Part shown: piece by piece, positions 5,745-22,183 of the stretch
How the letters are laid out: each line of letters opens with the position of its first letter
Position numbering within the stretch: the first letter of the stretch is position 1
Source of the DNA: Candidatus Moraniibacteriota bacterium
GTDB lineage: Bacteria; Patescibacteriota; Minisyncoccia; Moranbacterales; UBA1568
Direction: 5' to 3'
Assembly: GCA_052034975.1 (NCBI GenBank)
Contig: JBPOIA010000010.1
Coordinates: 12,957-76,956, forward strand
DNA: 64,000 bases
Notes under the pieces: model-generated
Told to the model about the DNA's origin: nothing
Database searches by the model: none
The model's input: only the letters and a program-made list of their open reading frames with translations
Made by a program: the position numbers and the translations under genes

Positions 5745-6878
5745 ATGGCTGACGTGCCACGAGTGGTTTTGACGGGCGGTCTTTCCGGCGGACACACGTT
5801 TCCGCTCATTGCGGTGGCGCGAGCACTCCGTTCGGAGTTTCCGCAGGGAATAGAGTTTTTGTTCATCGGGTCGCGCGGACGGTTCGAGGATGCGTCGATG
5901 GCCGAAGAGAGTATCCCGGTAAAATATGTTCTGACCGGCAAATGGCGACGGTATTTCTCGCTGCTCAATATCATCGATCCGTTCAAGATCCCGATCGGTT
6001 TCGTGCAGGCGCTTTGGCATATGCTGTTCTTTATGCCGGAGGTGATCTTCGCCAAAGGTGGGGCGGCTTCGGTGCCGGTGGTAGTGGCCGCGTGGTTGTA
6101 TCGCATTCCGGTTGTCATCCACGATTCCGATGCGGTAGCCGGTCGGGCCAATCGTTTCCTTTCGCGGTTCGCACGGCGTATCGCGATCGCGTATCCGGGT
6201 GCGCGCGAGTATTTTCCGGCCGAAAAGACCGCGCTCACGGGTAATCCGGTGCGGACGGAAATCTTAAGCGGCGATGCTGCTCGTGCCTTCTCTCGATATG
6301 GGTTTTCTGCCGAGAAATCGACGCTTCTTGTCATTGGCGGGAGCCAGGGGGCGATGATTCTGAACGAAGCTTTGCTCCGCGTCTTACCGAGCCTGCTGGA
6401 AAGGAACATCCAGGTGATCCATCAGACGGGAAGCGACCATTATGAATCCATCAAGGAGGCGGTGGAAAAGTACGGGATCGCCATCGGAACGAGCGGGTAT
6501 GTGCCGGTACCATTCTTGCCGGCGGGCGAATTAGCTGACGCGCTCTCGGCCGCGATGATTGTCATCTCGCGGGCCGGTGCCGGTTCCATCGCCGAAATTG
6601 CCGCTACGAAGAAACCCGCCATCCTCATTCCGCTTGCGAGCGCCGCGAATGACGAGCAACGAATGAACGCGTACGATATTGCCGGCATCGGTGGTGCACT
6701 CGTGATTGAGGAAGCCAATCTTGGGAAAAATATGCTTTTCGAGAAGATCGTCGAGCTCATCGATCAGCCGGGAACTCGCGTCTCTATGAGCGAGAAGATC
6801 GGTGCTTTCTACCATCCTGACGCTGCACAGGCGATCGCAGAGAGTCTGGCGACGCTTATTCGGGAACGTCGATCCTGA
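5745..6878 (+). CDS. murG: UDP-GlcNAc:undecaprenyl-PP-MurNAc-pentapeptide GlcNAc transferase
   Basis: GGLSGGHTFPLIAVARAL and GGSQGA motifs; GT28 architecture. Confidence 0.9.
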   Translation: MADVPRVVLTGGLSGGHTFPLIAVARALRSEFPQGIEFLFIGSRGRFEDASMAEESIPVKYVLTGKWRRYFSLLNIIDPFKIPIGFVQALWHMLFFMPEVIFAKGGAASVPVVVAAWLYRIPVVIHDSDAVAGRANRFLSRFARRIAIAYPGAREYFPAEKTALTGNPVRTEILSGDAARAFSRYGFSAEKSTLLVIGGSQGAMILNEALLRVLPSLLERNIQVIHQTGSDHYESIKEAVEKYGIAIGTSGYVPVPFLPAGELADALSAAMIVISRAGAGSIAEIAATKKPAILIPLASAANDEQRMNAYDIAGIGGALVIEEANLGKNMLFEKIVELIDQPGTRVSMSEKIGAFYHPDAAQAIAESLATLIRERRS

Positions 6879-6887
6879 AAGATCCAT

Positions 6888-8303
6888 ATGCAGATATCGC
6901 GCCTTTCTCAGTTCAAGAATATCCATATGATCGGCGTGAAGGGCGCCGGAATGACAGCGTTGGCCGAACTTTTGTCGAAACAAGGCGTGACGATCACTGG
7001 TTCGGATACGGGCGAAGTCTTTTTTACGGACGGCATACTGAAGAAGCTCGGGATTCTTTTTGCCGAGCGGTTCGCGCCGGAGAATATCCCAAACAATGCC
7101 GATGCGATCGTGTATTCGACGGCGTATTCGCGTGAGAAGAATTCGGAATTGGCCGCCGCATTTGAAAAGGATATTCCGGTGCTGAGCTATCCGCAGGCGC
7201 TCGGGATGCTTACGCGAGAAAAGCTTACACTTGCGGTGTGCGGTACGCACGGCAAGACGACGACATCGGCGCTTTTGGCCGAGACACTCCGTCACACCGG
7301 TCTTAATCCGTCGGCGATCGTCGGGAGTCGGATTCTCCAGTGGGAAGGAAATGCGCTTCTCGGCAGCGGGGAATATCTCGTGCTTGAAGCCGATGAATAT
7401 CAGAACAAGCTGGCCGAATATTTGCCGTTCGGAGTGATCCTGACAAGCGCTGATTGGGATCATCCGGATTTCTTTCCCGATCGCGAGAGCTATCTGTCAG
7501 TTTTCCGCGAATTCGTCGCCCGTATCCCGAAACACGGCGTGCTCGTCTACTGCAACGATTCGGCGGACGTGGTACACATCGCCGAAGCAGCACACTGTCA
7601 GAAAATTTCGTACGGCTTTCTTGCCGGAGCGGATGTTTTGATAGGCGAGTATCAGGCGGAAAAAATGGGTTTTGTCGGAGAGCACGATGCGTTCAAACAA
7701 TCATTTTCTGTCGCGATTCGCGGTGAAGACAAGGGTCGGTTTCGTCTGCGGTTGGCCGGCGAGCATAACGCAGAGAATGCCGCCGCCGTGATTGCGCTCA
7801 CGGTGTTTCTGAAGCAGGATATCGAGCGTGTCCGCCGCGGACTGGAGAAGTTTTCTGGGACCGAGCGGCGTTTCGAATTGATTGGCGAGCGATATGGCAC
7901 GCTCATCTACGACGATTACGCGCATCATCCGGAAGAGATCCGCGCGACACTCAAAGCATTTCGCGACCTTTATCCAAAGCGCAGGCTCCGGGTGGTATTT
8001 CATCCACATACCTTCACCCGCACCAAAACGTTTCTCGAAGAATTCTCGCAGAGCTTTGATCTGGCAGATGAAGTGTATGTGCTCGATATCTACGGTAGCG
8101 CGCGCGAAGAGCACGGCGGCGTGTCTTCGGAAGACCTGGTGAGAGAGATCAACCGGTTCGCTCCCGGCAAAGCCGAGTATGTTCCGGACAAAGAGGCGCT
8201 TGTCGGACGATTCGAGGAGACAATGGGACGGCAAGATGTTATCATAACGCTGGGTGCGGGAAATGTGTGGGAGCTTTCCCATACGCTCGCGAAGAAGCGA
8301 TAA
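6888..8303 (+). CDS. murC: UDP-N-acetylmuramate--L-alanine ligase
   Basis: IHMIGVKGAGMTALAELL; GTHGKTTTSALLA P-loop; Mur ligase C-terminal domain. Confidence 0.9.
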   Translation: MQISRLSQFKNIHMIGVKGAGMTALAELLSKQGVTITGSDTGEVFFTDGILKKLGILFAERFAPENIPNNADAIVYSTAYSREKNSELAAAFEKDIPVLSYPQALGMLTREKLTLAVCGTHGKTTTSALLAETLRHTGLNPSAIVGSRILQWEGNALLGSGEYLVLEADEYQNKLAEYLPFGVILTSADWDHPDFFPDRESYLSVFREFVARIPKHGVLVYCNDSADVVHIAEAAHCQKISYGFLAGADVLIGEYQAEKMGFVGEHDAFKQSFSVAIRGEDKGRFRLRLAGEHNAENAAAVIALTVFLKQDIERVRRGLEKFSGTERRFELIGERYGTLIYDDYAHHPEEIRATLKAFRDLYPKRRLRVVFHPHTFTRTKTFLEEFSQSFDLADEVYVLDIYGSAREEHGGVSSEDLVREINRFAPGKAEYVPDKEALVGRFEETMGRQDVIITLGAGNVWELSHTLAKKR

Positions 8304-17030: not shown

Positions 17031-18674
17031 ATGGCAAAACAGAAACGGACGAAATATATCTTCGTGGTCGGCGGCGTGATGAGCGGTGTTGGCAAGGGTG
17101 TTACTGTCTCATCGATTGGTAAGATTCTCCAATCGCGCGGTTTCAACGTGACGGCGTTCAAGATCGATCCGTACATCAATGTCGATGCCGGTACGATGAA
17201 TCCGACGGAGCATGGCGAAGTGTTCGTGCTGAAAGACGGCTACGAAACGGATCAGGATATGGGAAATTATGAGCGATTCCTCAATATTGAGCTCGATCGT
17301 GGCAATTATATGACGACCGGACTCGTCTACAAGTCGGTTATCGAAAAGGAACGCAACCTGGAATATCAGGGGAAATGCGTTCAGGTGGTGCCGCACATCC
17401 CGCTCGAAGTGATCGCGCGCATCAAGAAATCCGTCAAGAAAAGTGATGCCGACATAGCCATCATCGAAATTGGTGGCACGGTGGGAGAATACGAAAACAT
17501 CCTGTTCTTGGAAGCGATCCGGCTTTTGAAGAGTGAACATCCCGACGACGTCATCACGGTCATCGTGAGCTATGTCCCGACGCCGTCCAAGGTGGGCGAG
17601 ATGAAGACGAAGCCGACACAGCACGCTGTTCGGACATTGAATGGCGCCGGTATCCTGCCGGACATCATTGTGGCCCGGGCTGATCGGCCGCTCGACGAGA
17701 AGCGCAAAGAAAAAGTGGCGGTGTTCTGCAACGTGCGCAAGGAAGATGTGATCAGCGCGCCAGATGTCGAAAGCATTTATGATGTACCGCTTAATTTCGA
17801 GCGTGACCGATTGAGCGATAATCTTCTCAGGAAACTCGGACTGAAACCGCGTCGCCGTGATATGCGCGAATGGGAAAATCGGGTGGAACGTACTAAAAGA
17901 GCGAAGAACCCCGTACGTATCGGCATTGTCGGAAAATATTTCAAGACTGGCGATTTTGTGCTTTCGGACGCATATATCAGCGTCATCGAGGCCATCAAGC
18001 ACGCCGCGTGCGATATCGGTCGAAAGCCGATCCTCGATTGGATCGATAGCACCGATTTCGAGGAGAATCCCAAAAAACTCGCTGAACTTAAGGCCTATGA
18101 CGGTATCCTTATTCCGGGTGGGTTCGGGAGCCGCGGCATCGAGGGGAAAATCGCCGTGATTCGCTATTGCCGTGAGCAGAAAATTCCGTATTTCGGGTTG
18201 TGTTATGGGATGCAGCTTATGGTTATCGAGTATGCACGGCATACCCTCGGTTTACGAGACGCGCACACGACCGAAGTGGCCAAGGGGACAAAACATCCGA
18301 TCGTGGATATTATGCCGGAACAGAAGGAGAATCTGCTCAAGAAAAATTACGGCGCCACGATGCGACTCGGACATTATGAAGCGCAGTTGCGACCGGGAAC
18401 GATCGCACGCGCGGCGTATGGTGCGGACAGCGTTTTGGAGCGTCATCGTCATCGTTACGAGGTCAATCCAAAGTACGTAGAGGATCTGCAAAAAGCAGGG
18501 CTTGTCTTTTCTGCCGTTTCGCCCGACGGCGTGCTGATGGAGATTGCCGAACTGCCAAAGAAGAAGCACCCGTTCTTTCTCGCGACGCAATTTCATCCGG
18601 AATTTCAGTCTTCATTGTTGCGTCCACACCCACTCTTCGTCGCGTTCCTTCGCGCCTGCACAAGGAAGAAATAA
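17031..18674 (+). CDS. pyrG: CTP synthase
   Basis: KYIFVVGGVMSGVGKG N-terminus; glutamine amidotransferase domain with GLCYGMQ and HRHRYEVN. Confidence 0.95.
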   Translation: MAKQKRTKYIFVVGGVMSGVGKGVTVSSIGKILQSRGFNVTAFKIDPYINVDAGTMNPTEHGEVFVLKDGYETDQDMGNYERFLNIELDRGNYMTTGLVYKSVIEKERNLEYQGKCVQVVPHIPLEVIARIKKSVKKSDADIAIIEIGGTVGEYENILFLEAIRLLKSEHPDDVITVIVSYVPTPSKVGEMKTKPTQHAVRTLNGAGILPDIIVARADRPLDEKRKEKVAVFCNVRKEDVISAPDVESIYDVPLNFERDRLSDNLLRKLGLKPRRRDMREWENRVERTKRAKNPVRIGIVGKYFKTGDFVLSDAYISVIEAIKHAACDIGRKPILDWIDSTDFEENPKKLAELKAYDGILIPGGFGSRGIEGKIAVIRYCREQKIPYFGLCYGMQLMVIEYARHTLGLRDAHTTEVAKGTKHPIVDIMPEQKENLLKKNYGATMRLGHYEAQLRPGTIARAAYGADSVLERHRHRYEVNPKYVEDLQKAGLVFSAVSPDGVLMEIAELPKKKHPFFLATQFHPEFQSSLLRPHPLFVAFLRACTRKK

Positions 18675-18688
18675 GGCTGGGTGGACTC

Positions 18689-18716
18689 TTTACAGAACCG
18701 GTTTTCCGTGCCAGTA
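18689..18716 (+). promoter_or_regulatory. Weak candidate promoter at the 5' edge of the RT-upstream non-coding region
   Basis: TTTACA-N18-AGTATC, immediately downstream of the pyrG stop; a marginal match. Confidence 0.25.
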
Positions 18717-18727
18717 TCTTTGTGGAT

Positions 18728-19025
18728 CAGGGATTGCCAAGGAGGGTAGTACCCGGAGCTTCAGATCCTTTTTCAGTACGTGTAGTATCATCGTCGTACC
18801 GTAGCATATGTCCGTTATGGCACATATGGCCGCGAGGCTGTATGGTAGCGGATCGGGAGGGGCATCCTTCCTCTAGTGGCGGCTTCTGCGCCATCCGGGA
18901 TTTGGGTCCGCTTGGCGGTTCCCATAGGCTCGTCGGTGCGGGCACGCAGAATTGGTGTCCAGGGTCGAGGCCACCCCGGTTCGTTCGACTGTTGTTTCAC
19001 CCCGAAGTTTCGGGACTCCTTGGCA
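18728..19025 (+). ncRNA. Candidate structured non-coding RNA upstream of the reverse transcriptase (retron msr/msd-like or DRT-type template RNA; boundaries approximate)
   Basis: GC-rich (~60%+) 400-nt spacer with no convincing ORF start. A 10-bp long-range inverted repeat, TGCCAAGGAG (18735-18744) and CTCCTTGGCA (19016-19025), is placed like retron a1/a2, with G residues right after a1. There are multiple local hairpins (cccgaagtttcggg, catatg palindromes, tgcgggcacgca). Confidence 0.3.
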
Positions 19026-19079
19026 GGTTGAACGGAACATCGTTCTTTCACAAATGATTCATTTTTCGGGAGAGTGGAT

Positions 19080-20132
19080 ATGAAGGATATCGCAATCCCG
19101 GAATTTTTGGGAGCGATCGGCGGCGAGCCGAGGATAGATTTTCATAAGAAAGTCGTGGCAGGCAAGTGCCGTCTGATCGGTAATCCAAACAAATCGATGC
19201 GCATCCTGCATAAGCAGTTCGAGTGGCACATCAAAAACGCCATACGAAGCATCGACCAAGATGCGAATTATGGCGTCCGGCGGCTGCCTTCGGCGACCGG
19301 ATGTACTCCCTTGTCCAATCCGATGAAGAATGCGCTCCGTCATATGAAGGGAAAATTCTTCTACGTGACGGATCTCAAAGACGCGTATCCGAGCGTCGAT
19401 CTCGAACGACTAGCGCTTCTCCTCACGTTTCTGTTCCATTACAAGGAGTATGCGATCGAAGGGGAGGTCTCGTTCAAGTTCTTCATATGCTCGGATGGGC
19501 ACGATCGGATCCGTCGGGATCCGCTGTACGGACAGTTGCTCACGCTGCTTCGGTGTCATTTTTCCGGACTGCACGGGAAGGGGCTTGCGATCGGCGGACC
19601 GCTTTCGCCGTATCTTATGAACCTCTACTGCGAGGTCTATCTCGATTCGCAACTCAGGATGTGGTGCTGGAAGCACGATATCACGTACACCCGTTATGTC
19701 GATGACCTCGTGTTTTCGTCGGAAAAGGTGTTCATCAATGAGGATTGGCGTAGGAAAATACGGGAGTTCATTGGCGCGGCCGGATTTCGTCCGAATCATC
19801 GCAAGTCGAAGGTACTCGTTCTTGAGCGCGGCGCGGTCTTCATCACCAAGGTGGGATTAGAGTTCCGTCCGGAGCGTGTGACAGCCAGGTTGGTATTCCC
19901 GCAGAGGAAGCGTCGCCGACTCCGCAATGCGATTATGGACTATCTGACGTGGCAGACCGATTGGCCGGAGAAGGTGAGTGGACTCGTGGCGGAGTTCCTC
20001 TACTATTACAAGGATGTCGGAGAACGGAAGACGGTTTCCGATAAAAAGACGTTCGCGCTCTGCGTCGATTTCGAGAAGGAATGGGCCAAGTATCGGCAGG
20101 GTCCCCGTCTAGGATCGAGGAAGAGTGGATGA
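19080..20132 (+). CDS. Stand-alone prokaryotic reverse transcriptase (retron/group-II-like RT family, YVDD active site)
   Basis: RT motifs: motif 1 KVVAGKCRLIGNPNKSMRILHKQFEWHI; motif 2 GKFFYVTDLKDAYPSVD; motif 4 GLAIGGPLSPYLMNLYCEVYLD; motif 5 YTRYVDDLVFSS; motif 6 FRPNHRKSKVL; motif 7 VFITKVGLEF; plus a ~80-aa C-terminal extension. No maturase/endonuclease domain. GGGAGAG SD sequence upstream of ATG 19080 (the ORF track starts at GTG 19074). Confidence 0.85.
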   Translation: MKDIAIPEFLGAIGGEPRIDFHKKVVAGKCRLIGNPNKSMRILHKQFEWHIKNAIRSIDQDANYGVRRLPSATGCTPLSNPMKNALRHMKGKFFYVTDLKDAYPSVDLERLALLLTFLFHYKEYAIEGEVSFKFFICSDGHDRIRRDPLYGQLLTLLRCHFSGLHGKGLAIGGPLSPYLMNLYCEVYLDSQLRMWCWKHDITYTRYVDDLVFSSEKVFINEDWRRKIREFIGAAGFRPNHRKSKVLVLERGAVFITKVGLEFRPERVTARLVFPQRKRRRLRNAIMDYLTWQTDWPEKVSGLVAEFLYYYKDVGERKTVSDKKTFALCVDFEKEWAKYRQGPRLGSRKSG

Positions 20133-20135
20133 CAA

Positions 20136-20208
20136 GGTGTCAGGCATAAACCATATGCTTGGCACCTTTTTTCTTTAAAGAAAAACACCCCGAGACGGGG
20201 TGTTTTGG
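20136..20208. terminator. Two tandem hairpin terminators between the RT gene (+) and rpmA (-); the second is bidirectional
   Basis: ggtgtcaggcat..atgcttggcacc followed by TTTTTTC; then aaaaacaccccgagacggggtgtttt flanked by A-runs and T-runs on both strands. Confidence 0.65.
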
Positions 20209-20224
20209 TGGAATCTTCGCAAAT

Positions 20225-20506
20225 TTATTCTTGCGGGATGACGTGGACGAACGTGCGGGTGACGAGCTTGCCGGTGAAGTCCTTGACTTTCTTGGTCTGG
20301 AATTCCACGGCACCCGATGCGAGCGCGAAGAGCGTATCGTCCGCACCGCTTCTCACGTTTTTTCCGGGATGGAATTTCGTTCCGCGCTGACGGATAACAA
20401 CATTTCCGATTTCTGCCTTTTGGCCGCCGAACACTTTGACTCCGAGACGTTTTGAGATGGAATCGCGGCCGAGCGAGGTTGACCCGCCTGCTTTTCTGGT
20501 TGCCAT
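20225..20506 (-). CDS. rpmA: 50S ribosomal protein L27
   Basis: [29 protein letters not shown]...[13 protein letters not shown] matches L27. Confidence 0.9.
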
Positions 20507-20581
20507 AACCGTGCAATACTTAGAGACTTACGTATGTTTTGCTATACTGGATGAGTATATCCGTTTCTTCTCGATTTGTCA

Positions 20582-20983
20582 ATGTTTTGGAAACTGCCGC
20601 CGTTTGACGGCTTGAAAAGATGGTATCAGCAAGAAAAAGGGCGTATAGGGCTTTTTTTCGGCATTTTTTTGGCTCTTTGCATAGCGTTTCAGGCGGGACG
20701 TTTACAGGGAGGAATCCCTCAATCGGAGCCGCTTATCATCGCATTGCCACCAGTACCGGAAACATCGGTTCAATCGGTCGCCGAAGTGAAGGGCGAACAG
20801 ATCGTTTTACGGAACCAAAATGTCACGCCGGAAAAATGTGCGTTTGTTGGAAGCAGAAACAGCGATAAGTATCATCTGCCGCATTGTGCTTCGGCCAAAC
20901 GTATCAAACCAGAAAATCTGGTATGTTTCGTTTCCAAAGAAGATGCGGAAAAACGCGGATATGTTGCCGGATGTTTGAAATGA
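20582..20983 (+). CDS. Hypothetical membrane-anchored protein with a C-terminal Cys-rich motif
   Basis: N-terminal TM helix. The C-terminal CAFVGSRNSDKYHLPHCASAKRI..NLVCFVSKEDAEKRGYVAGC resembles a small Cys/His metal-binding module. gcTATACTgg promoter at ~20538; first ATG at 20582. Confidence 0.45.
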   Translation: MFWKLPPFDGLKRWYQQEKGRIGLFFGIFLALCIAFQAGRLQGGIPQSEPLIIALPPVPETSVQSVAEVKGEQIVLRNQNVTPEKCAFVGSRNSDKYHLPHCASAKRIKPENLVCFVSKEDAEKRGYVAGCLK

Positions 20984-20989
20984 TATACA

Positions 20990-22183
20990 ATGAACAGTAT
21001 GAAACACAAAGATAACTTTGATTACAAGAAATCCCGTCTTATCAGCGGGATATCGTTCTTGCTTGGATTTTTTGGGGCGTTTCTTCTCTATATTCTTTCC
21101 GCCTACTTTTCGAAGGTATCCGGAAGCGACAACGTTGGCGTGTTCTATTTCGCGGCGTATGCTGGGACGCTGCTTTCGCTTTTTTTCATCCGGCCACTGA
21201 TTCAGTATGTCGGAAAAATGCGGTTTCTGTATCTTTCGCTCATACTGACTATCTTTTGTCTTACGCTTCTGACACATCTGTCGCCGTCGTGGCTGCCGGT
21301 GCTTCTTCTCCTCATAATGCTTACGTTCGACAGCGTGACGTGGGTAACGCTCGATATCATCCTTGAAGGATTCTCGTCCGACGGGATGTCTGGACGGATC
21401 CGCGGATTGCATCTGACGATTATGAACGCAGGACTTCTCCTTGCCCCGTATTTTTCGACGTGGACGCTCGATCGTTTCGGATATGAGGGCGTGTTTTTCG
21501 TTATGTTGGTCGGCTATATCCTCATTTTTCTTGTCGCGCTCATCTTCTTGCGTCACGATAATGGGGTATTCCAGGAATCGCTCGATCCGGAACGGGCGTT
21601 CCGAAAAATGCTTCGTGAGAAAAATCTGTTCCGAATCTATCTCGTTTCCTTTTCGCTGGAATTCTTCTTCGGCCTGATGACGGTGTACACATCGCTCCGG
21701 TTGCTCGAAATCGGGATGTCGTGGAATGAAATCGGTATTATCTTCACGGCGATGCTTGTGCCGTTCGTTCTTCTCCAATATCCGTTCGGCCGGATCGCCG
21801 ACAAGCGAATGGGGGAAAAAGAGCTTCTGATCGGAAGTCTCATCTTGATCGCCTTTTCGACCGCGGCCCTGTATTTCCTCGATACGAAGAGTGTGCTTTT
21901 GTGGGGATCGGTCCTTTTTTTGACTCGTATTGGTGCCGCCGGAATTGAAATTCTCCGTGACTCGTATTTCTACAAACAGGTGGACAGCGACGATATGGAT
22001 ATCATCGCGTTTTTTCGTACGGCGCGGCCGGTTGCGGGGATGCTTGGGGCCATTCTTTCGATCGGCATCCTTCTTTTGTTCCCGCTGAAGAGCATTTTTT
22101 TAGTGGTAGCGGTCGCTTTTGTACCGGTCATTTTGACGACGTTTTTCCTTGATGATACGCGGGCGGAACAGGAACGAGCGTGA
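20990..22183 (+). CDS. MFS transporter
   Basis: 12 predicted TM helices and an MFS-like loop motif (DRFGYEG...). Confidence 0.75.
   Translation: MNSMKHKDNFDYKKSRLISGISFLLGFFGAFLLYILSAYFSKVSGSDNVGVFYFAAYAGTLLSLFFIRPLIQYVGKMRFLYLSLILTIFCLTLLTHLSPSWLPVLLLLIMLTFDSVTWVTLDIILEGFSSDGMSGRIRGLHLTIMNAGLLLAPYFSTWTLDRFGYEGVFFVMLVGYILIFLVALIFLRHDNGVFQESLDPERAFRKMLREKNLFRIYLVSFSLEFFFGLMTVYTSLRLLEIGMSWNEIGIIFTAMLVPFVLLQYPFGRIADKRMGEKELLIGSLILIAFSTAALYFLDTKSVLLWGSVLFLTRIGAAGIEILRDSYFYKQVDSDDMDIIAFFRTARPVAGMLGAILSIGILLLFPLKSIFLVVAVAFVPVILTTFFLDDTRAEQERA

Follow-up and report, generated by a model that had tools for sequence, protein, structure and literature searches.

Retrons and defence-associated reverse transcriptases (DRTs) have recently yielded several new biochemistries and genome-editing tools, and bacteria of the candidate phyla radiation (CPR) are thought to hold almost only reverse transcriptases (RTs) of the diversity-generating retroelement (DGR) type. 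The locus described here, a stand-alone RT gene directly preceded by a structured non-coding RNA (ncRNA), is located in a 64,000 nt stretch of a Candidatus Moraniibacteriota genome (GCA_052034975.1, contig JBPOIA010000010.1, positions 12,957 to 76,956 of the forward strand), which is referred to as the window and from whose first letter positions are counted. The cassette occupies 18686-20180 on the plus strand and comprises a promoter, an RNA of ~330 nt (18724-19053), the RT gene (19080-20132) and a terminator. It is an effector-less module without a conserved neighbour, and it is, on balance, probably a horizontally acquired, two-part RT-ncRNA retroelement of the retron lineage which copies part of its own RNA.

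Approximately 75% of retrons have an accessory effector gene or fused domain, and ~25% of predicted retrons have no known one (PMC8632793); the absence of an effector alone is therefore not unprecedented. VTG in motif 7 of the RT is a retron signature, and ~80% of CPR RTs belong to DGRs (PMC8632793). DRT2 (UG2) consists of an RT and a pseudoknotted ncRNA which are reported to give rise to a concatemeric cDNA encoding Neo (PMC12039810), and DRT9 (UG28) consists of an RT and an ncRNA and carries out protein-primed poly-dA synthesis (PMC12489045, PMC12483538). From CPR bacteria themselves, the small class 2 UG/Abi group UG38 has been reported in Parcubacteria and other CPR genomes (PMC9226505). 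In full-text literature searches, a family of retron-like RTs with an ncRNA was nowhere found described for CPR bacteria, in line with an earlier note on this DNA, made from its sequence, that had taken the unit for an undescribed variant; a term search of a 2026 ncRNA-mining preprint ('Minerva') found neither CPR nor Patescibacteria mentioned.

The RT of the window belongs to a family. When near-full-length relatives were counted as clusters at 90% identity, at least 120 such clusters were found among the matches listed, with members of ~340-390 aa, the best 120 being 43-81% identical to the window RT. Around 35 clusters at 50% identity score >230 bits, after which the scores drop to generic retron-like RTs. 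Of the named sources of the relatives listed, all but two are Patescibacteria, namely Moranbacteria, Kaiserbacteria, Minisyncoccota and Saccharibacteria. Loci were compared in a set of 19 distinct ones, in which short Logan/ENA contigs were not included; in contig scans the full RT alignment found only 3 family loci among generic YxDD RTs, and an alignment of the C-terminal family region performed better. In all 19 loci the RT is preceded by 300-600 nt that are gene-free and carry the same RNA, which bears out the proposal in the earlier note that the RT has its own structured RNA directly upstream. There is one cassette copy per locus, and between the window and its closest relatives (RTs 78-80% identical) homology extends from ~18686, at the promoter, to the RT stop. 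As judged from the sequences, both the RT and the RNA are under strong purifying selection, and the catalytic residues are intact.

No neighbouring gene is common to the 19 loci and the flanks change between lineages, with only L103 and the P0108 locus having a neighbourhood in common. In agreement with what the earlier note had said of this locus, there is no adjacent effector gene in any of the 19, and the RT has no fused domain. A 738-aa ATPase in L103 was considered as an effector on the basis of weak N-terminal PADLOC matches to Septu/PtuA-like proteins, but it is a chromosomal SMC protein (NCBIfam TIGR02168, 485 bits). Two family members are found in bins with non-CPR labels, L002 (a Bdellovibrionales metagenome-assembled genome) and P0105 (Zixiibacteriota); these are either mis-binned CPR contigs or cases of rare transfer outside the CPR.

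The RNA contains two hairpin domains whose strands also pair with each other over a long range. Within the 5' hairpin domain (18724-18768, plus strand) lie, in order, P1a (GGATC, 18724-28), X (AGGG(A), 18729-33; RGGY across loci), a1 (GCCAAGGAG(G), 18736-45), a bulge with a conserved unpaired G (GGTAGTA, 18745-51), the strand termed seg (CCCGGAGCTTC, 18752-62) and P1b (GATCC, 18764-68). The 3' hairpin domain (18979-19038, plus strand) holds P4a (GTTCGTTCGAC, 18979-89), X' (CCCC, 19000-03; RCCY across loci), the loop strand (GAAGTTTCGGG, 19004-14), a2 (CTCCTTGGC(A), 19016-25) and P4b (GTTGAACGGAAC, 19027-38). The a1/a2 pairing had been noticed as an exact 10-bp inverted repeat (TGCCAAGGAG at 18735-44 and CTCCTTGGCA at 19016-25, with GG next to it at 18745-46) placed like retron a1/a2. 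The window sequence by itself does not single this repeat out, as 18 such pairs occur within 2.3 kb, and its significance derives from the comparison across the 19 loci. In all of them a1/a2 forms 10 bp, in at least 6 sequence variants, with 97% of cells paired; compensatory change is seen at 7/10 pairs, and 0/500 shuffles were as good. These column-wise counts were taken from a gap-free alignment construct (A7).

Pairing was assessed independently of columns by a partner-permutation test, in which the duplex energies of cognate partners were compared with those of shuffled partners for 14 non-redundant loci and 20000 permutations. For a1/a2 the cognate energy was -18.8 against -12.9 kcal/mol when permuted, for seg/loop -11.6 against -5.9 kcal/mol and for P4 -13.4 against -10.1 kcal/mol, with 0/20000 permutations as good in each case; for X/X' it was -5.4 against -4.2 kcal/mol (12/20000 as good). 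Two negative controls in this test were not significant. In P1, 98.5% of cells are paired, and compensatory change is seen at 2 pairs. The conserved core between the two domains (18811-18893, plus strand) consists of hairpins H_A (18811-52), H_B (18855-73) and H_C (18877-93, with GCTT in the loop), in which RNAalifold places 18 pairs. Compensatory changes occur at 10 of these, and the H_A stem shows CG<->UA exchanges at 4 pairs. A covariance model of this three-hairpin core (R1) matches 16 family loci with 51-82 bits, L087, which is truncated at its 5' end, with 33 bits, and L093 and L101 with ~22 bits; it has no match at L002, and none above chance on 76 unrelated RT loci.

In all loci a1 is followed by an unpaired G in the context N-G-Y, within a bulge of 6-14 nt, so that both the pairing, which covaries, and the adjoining G that the earlier note had pointed out are conserved. 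With seg/loop, which extends the pairing inward by ~10 bp, a1/a2 makes up a long-range helix of ~20 bp that is interrupted by the G-bearing bulge and is predicted by the thermodynamic fold in nearly every homologue. With this helix beside a conserved unpaired G, the RNA has the geometry that PMC8632793 describes for retron priming.

The RT open reading frame spans 19074-20132 (plus strand), with 352 aa from a GTG; the start is more likely the ATG at 19080, 8 nt after the Shine-Dalgarno sequence (SD) GGGAG (19068-72), giving a product of 350 aa that is identical to database protein P0001. It carries an NAxxH motif (NALRH, 19329-43), the YVDD box (19695-19706), motif 7 as ITKVGL and motif 4 as GGPLSPYL, in which the DGR-type SQ is absent, and its family-specific C-terminus reads FPQ+KRR...DWPEKVSG...AEFLYYYK. 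Invariant in the family are the catalytic residues D100, D210 and D211 and, within the NAxxH motif, N86 and H90. Pfam detects RVT_1 alone (E 4.5e-16), and an AlphaFold2 model (predicted local distance difference test score 85) shows fingers, palm and a three-helix thumb without an extra domain; neither Pfam nor the model reveals a maturase or endonuclease domain, so the description of a stand-alone YVDD RT holds.

In sequence and in fold this RT is closest to the retron lineage, to type I-A St85/Ec78 and then Ec83, Ec67 and Ec86. The top 25 PADLOC models are all retron RTs (best RT_II-A, 5.5e-23), with no group II, DRT or UG/Abi model among them. A profile search of the PDB gave retron Ec78, Eco7, Ec83, Ec67 and Ec86 at 2e-13 to 6e-11, group II at ~3e-6 and DRT2 at 1e-5. 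NCBIfam scores follow the same order, with 76.5 bits for retron_St85, 36.5 for group II, 24.6 for Drt2 (cutoff 390) and 21.6 for Drt3a (cutoff 200), and all of them are under the curated cutoffs. The nearest proteins outside the family are unclassified retron-like RTs. The HMM alignment with Ec78 matches the two RTs over the NAxxH block and at the V and T of motif 7, where K takes the position of the G. Foldseek places retron RTs at ranks 1-6 with GsI-IIC close behind and G2L4 among the matches, and DRT2, DRT9 and DRT4 structures at ranks 27-40 (DRT2 27th, DRT9 40th). In sequence the RT is much further from DRT2/DRT3 than from retrons, and the fold ranking agrees with this only marginally, so that of the earlier description as retron-like or DRT-like the first half stands and the second does not fit the RT sequence.

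A window RT of the UG38 group is unlikely. The two have a CPR host and a stand-alone RT in common, and what speaks against their identity are the matches of the window RT to retron models and the lack of UG/Abi among its 25 best PADLOC matches. DRT9 is alike in being a two-component RT-ncRNA system, but its RT is of another lineage and of ~500 aa. DRT2 agrees with the cassette in having two components only, with a pseudoknotted ncRNA, ~300 nt long, upstream of the RT, and in lacking an effector gene; in contrast, the window RT belongs to a different lineage and no conserved open frame is found on either strand of the RNA.

The cassette lies between pyrG (17031-18674), by which the host is placed in the Moranbacteria, confirming a CPR-like genome, and rpmA (L27, 20225-20506, minus strand). 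In L105, the closest relative with a long contig, pyrG is 83% identical and the order L9, pyrG, rpmA, ORF, MFS, ScpA, ScpB is collinear; its pyrG-rpmA slot (6641-7234) has 594 nt with an uncalled, unrelated ORF of ~135 aa, and the RT is absent. As the RT is missing from this collinear slot, the cassette is therefore accessory, an acquired insertion, which fits its sporadic occurrence. The corresponding slot of L106 (2441-4165) holds a DUF2207 gene. The pyrG-rpmA junction (18675-20224 in the window) thus presents itself as a variable slot in Moranbacteria, around which L9, pyrG, rpmA, MFS, ScpA and ScpB stay collinear.

What follows is inferred, from the binding of the RNA by the RT and the synthesis of cDNA to the priming site, the extent of the template and the biological role. 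A single promoter would give a transcript in which the multi-helix RNA is formed by the first ~330 nt and the remainder encodes the RT. With its thumb and its family-specific C-terminus, the RT would bind this RNA in cis and reverse-transcribe part of it, with priming most likely from the 2'-OH of the bulged G, as in retrons, and with the strand just 5' of a2 as the template, continuing into the GC-rich 3' half. In this scheme the msr would be represented by the conserved 5' hairpins, and the template by the less conserved GC-rich 3' half. The RT-RNA-cDNA complex itself would be the functional product, and this complex, or a host factor encoded elsewhere, would act, probably in defence against phages or mobile elements.

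Several features agree with a retron origin. The best matches of the RT are to retrons, and a motif of the NAxxH type precedes motif 1; the ncRNA is encoded just ahead of the RT on the same strand, its distal segments a1/a2 are complementary and followed by a conserved unpaired G, and short stem-loops occupy its 5' half. A number of others weigh against this interpretation. The RT scores far below the retron family cutoff (76.5 against 235 bits in NCBIfam), its fold match to group II RTs almost equals that to retrons, and motif 7 has the family consensus V/I-T-K-V/I-G-L, or VTK(V/I)G, in place of the retron VTG. On the RNA side, a1 is not at the extreme 5' end, as 11-12 nt (P1a and X) precede it, and the first template bases would be paired, in seg/loop. 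The would-be msd (18894-19015) consists of several short, partly conserved hairpins and not of a single long variable one, and P1, X/X' and P4 each cross the a1/a2 helix. The RNA, about twice as long as that of retrons and with a1/a2 extended inward by ~10 bp, is with its three extra crossing helices far more elaborate than a retron msr-msd, which the earlier note had missed. Given these crossings, the RNA either folds into multiple pseudoknots or switches between a two-hairpin and a long-range state; to our knowledge, the crossing of a1/a2 by further helices has no precedent in retrons. The family, moreover, is confined to the CPR bar the two sources named above. Because of these departures (no VTG, no long msd, paired first template bases, crossing helices, no effector) we name the system retron-like and not a retron.

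It is possible, and we put it forward tentatively, that the family represents an independent, retron-derived and effector-less RT-ncRNA strategy, in which the double-pseudoknotted RNA would switch between a closed state (P1/P4) and an open, priming-competent one (a1/a2 with seg/loop) and the DNA product would be the effector. If true, the switching RNA and DNA effector would form a new mechanistic class specific to ultra-small CPR bacteria, with a role that might be immune or might serve an episymbiotic lifestyle. Rather unlikely, in comparison, is a class 2 DRT-like system of the DRT2/DRT9 kind that arose by convergence from the retron lineage, with the pseudoknotted RNA as scaffold and template, and a repetitive, concatemeric or homopolymeric DNA, made on infection, which would itself act as the effector or would code for it. 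Such systems share the architecture of an RT with a pseudoknotted ncRNA of ~300 nt upstream and without a further gene (PMC12039810, PMC12489045, PMC12483538), crossing helices or pseudoknots are supported in the present RNA, none of the 19 loci has an effector, and the GTAGT-rich, repeat-like linker and the conserved U-rich motif of the RNA (both described below) could be templates. Against these stand the RT scores of only 24.6 (Drt2) and 21.6 (Drt3a) bits and the ranks of 27th to 40th for the DRT2, DRT9 and DRT4 structures, as well as the lack of a conserved stop-free frame on either strand; a template-flanking repeat that would permit template jumping was not identified in the RNA.

More doubtful still is the idea that the RNA does not serve as a template but as a leader with a cis-regulatory or scaffolding role, which might autoregulate translation of the RT or activate the enzyme. 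The RT would then act on other substrates, for instance in DNA repair or end-joining, as G2L4 RTs do, or on RNAs of the host or of phages. The RNA is indeed contiguous with the RT mRNA without a conserved terminator in between, the mutually exclusive helices (P1/P4 versus a1/a2) would suit a switch, G2L4 is among the fold matches and CPR genomes are short of repair functions. A structure of ~330 nt kept across CPR classes nevertheless far exceeds what autoregulation needs, a2 shows no covariation with the SD, a1/a2 with its adjoining unpaired G matches a retron priming site, and the sporadic, inserted distribution speaks against housekeeping repair. It is highly improbable that the cassette is a mobile retroelement of the selfish or decaying kind, for example the remnant of a group II intron or a DGR, and not a functional cellular system. 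The differing genomic contexts and the variable slot are what such an element would lead one to expect, but the cassette is single in each locus, searches with C-terminal patterns found no family member on viral contigs, no flanking direct repeats were found around it, and the purifying selection and intact catalytic residues noted above argue against decay. For a group II intron or G2L element, the domains D5/D6 were not detected by Rfam at E<=10 in 18000-21000, where the only matches are terminator-like and 3' of the RT with none on the spacer between pyrG and the RT gene, and Pfam finds RVT_1 only, with no maturase X or En domain; at the gathering threshold, over the whole window, no Rfam family covers the spacer. 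For a DGR, no second copy of the spacer resembling a template repeat/variable repeat pair is present in the 64 kb, and motif 4 (LSPYL) lacks SQ. The exclusion of both types in the earlier note is upheld by these searches.

For the favoured retron-like retroelement, the family offers a compact 350-aa RT, an RNA partner of ~330 nt backed by covariation, no confounding effector and at least 120 natural variants. The product and role of an effector-less retron-type RT thereby become directly testable by heterologous expression. If its product or priming chemistry departs from that of retrons, the known range of RT-ncRNA systems would be extended, and in CPR bacteria such a system would become accessible to functional study for the first time.

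The earlier note had also drawn attention to open frames across the spacer. Like everything else that the note recorded as seen, these stop-free frames (111, 78 and 72 codons) do exist at the positions given, but an open frame of 110 codons is reached by 11% of shuffles and the closest RNA homologue, L082, has only 77-81 codons. The open frames differ in frame between loci, and their translations are unrelated even in close homologues. As they are at chance level and not conserved, the idea of a Neo-like concatemer, and with it of a DRT2 product, is unsupported, while an unconventional short repeat unit may be compatible with these results. The spacer is likewise GC-rich and contains hairpins, but less conspicuously than had been stated: its GC content, 0.551, compares with 0.501 over the whole window and is reached by 13% of 400-nt segments, and the z-score of its minimum free energy folding is -1.9 for the single sequence. 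Its GC richness and structure had thus been overstated.

The promoter (18689-18717, plus strand) has a -35 element TTTACA (18689-94), a 17-nt spacer and an extended -10 element TG-c-CAGTAT (18709-17). In a 13-locus alignment T18709, G18710, A18713 and T18717 are invariant, and the TTTACA / TGnTAnnnT pattern is seen again in homologues. A generic promoter scan misses it because the hexamer matches at just 3/6 positions. From the position of the promoter, the 5' end of the transcript is predicted at ~18722-18725. At the other end, an intrinsic terminator (20134-20178, plus strand) has a 15-bp stem followed by a T-tract, and a second, bidirectional hairpin that serves rpmA is located at 20182-20206. 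In three other loci a downstream gene in the same orientation overlaps the 3' end of the RT gene by 46 nt: BipA/TypA in L083 (5987-6032) and a DUF3467 gene in L096 (4987-5032) and L097 (2802-2847). These overlaps suggest read-through co-transcription there, unlike in the terminated cassette of the window.

Between the 5' domain and the core, the linker (18769-18808, plus strand) is A/G/T-rich and predicted to be unstructured, as the folds of individual sequences show no consistent pairing. It is poor in C, is composed of degenerate GTAGT/GCAGT/GTAGC units and varies from 20 to 90 nt across loci (for example L083 4625-4700 and L001 3595-3680); a GTA or TTA resembling these units closes the bulge 3' of a1. 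The linker could be a protein-binding platform or a template. Downstream of the core, the variable GC-rich region (18894-18978, plus strand) forms several short hairpins, among them a conserved one, GGnnGnCCAR...RA.GCC, at 18954-72. A pyrimidine-rich motif, GTTCTTTYCAA (19042-19053, plus strand), is situated between the RNA and the ribosome-binding site of the RT and is present in all aligned loci.

A hairpin (GAACG-GAACAT-CGTTC, then TTTC) at 19030-19049 overlaps P4b and is found only in the window and L082; it could terminate transcription weakly, and P4 would then be the antiterminator. The a1 strand of the window (CCAAGGAGG, 18736-18745) resembles a strong SD and its a2 (CCTCCTTGG, 19015-19024) an anti-SD. 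Pairing of a2 with the SD of the RT as a translational switch was considered and rejected, as the covariation expected of it was not seen. The segment 18727-18737 is complementary to RT codons 5-8 (19092-19102) at 10/11 nt, a match that is absent in L081, partial in L082 and probably due to chance.

A distant RT in L004 (3553-4915; Saccharimonadia) is 29% identical to the window RT and also stand-alone, with 324 aa. It differs from the present family in that the core model R1 has no match at its locus. It is preceded by a GC-rich, gene-free region of ~390 nt and lies between housekeeping genes, namely HxlR and PpiC, and by this comparison it may represent a second CPR RT-ncRNA family of like architecture.

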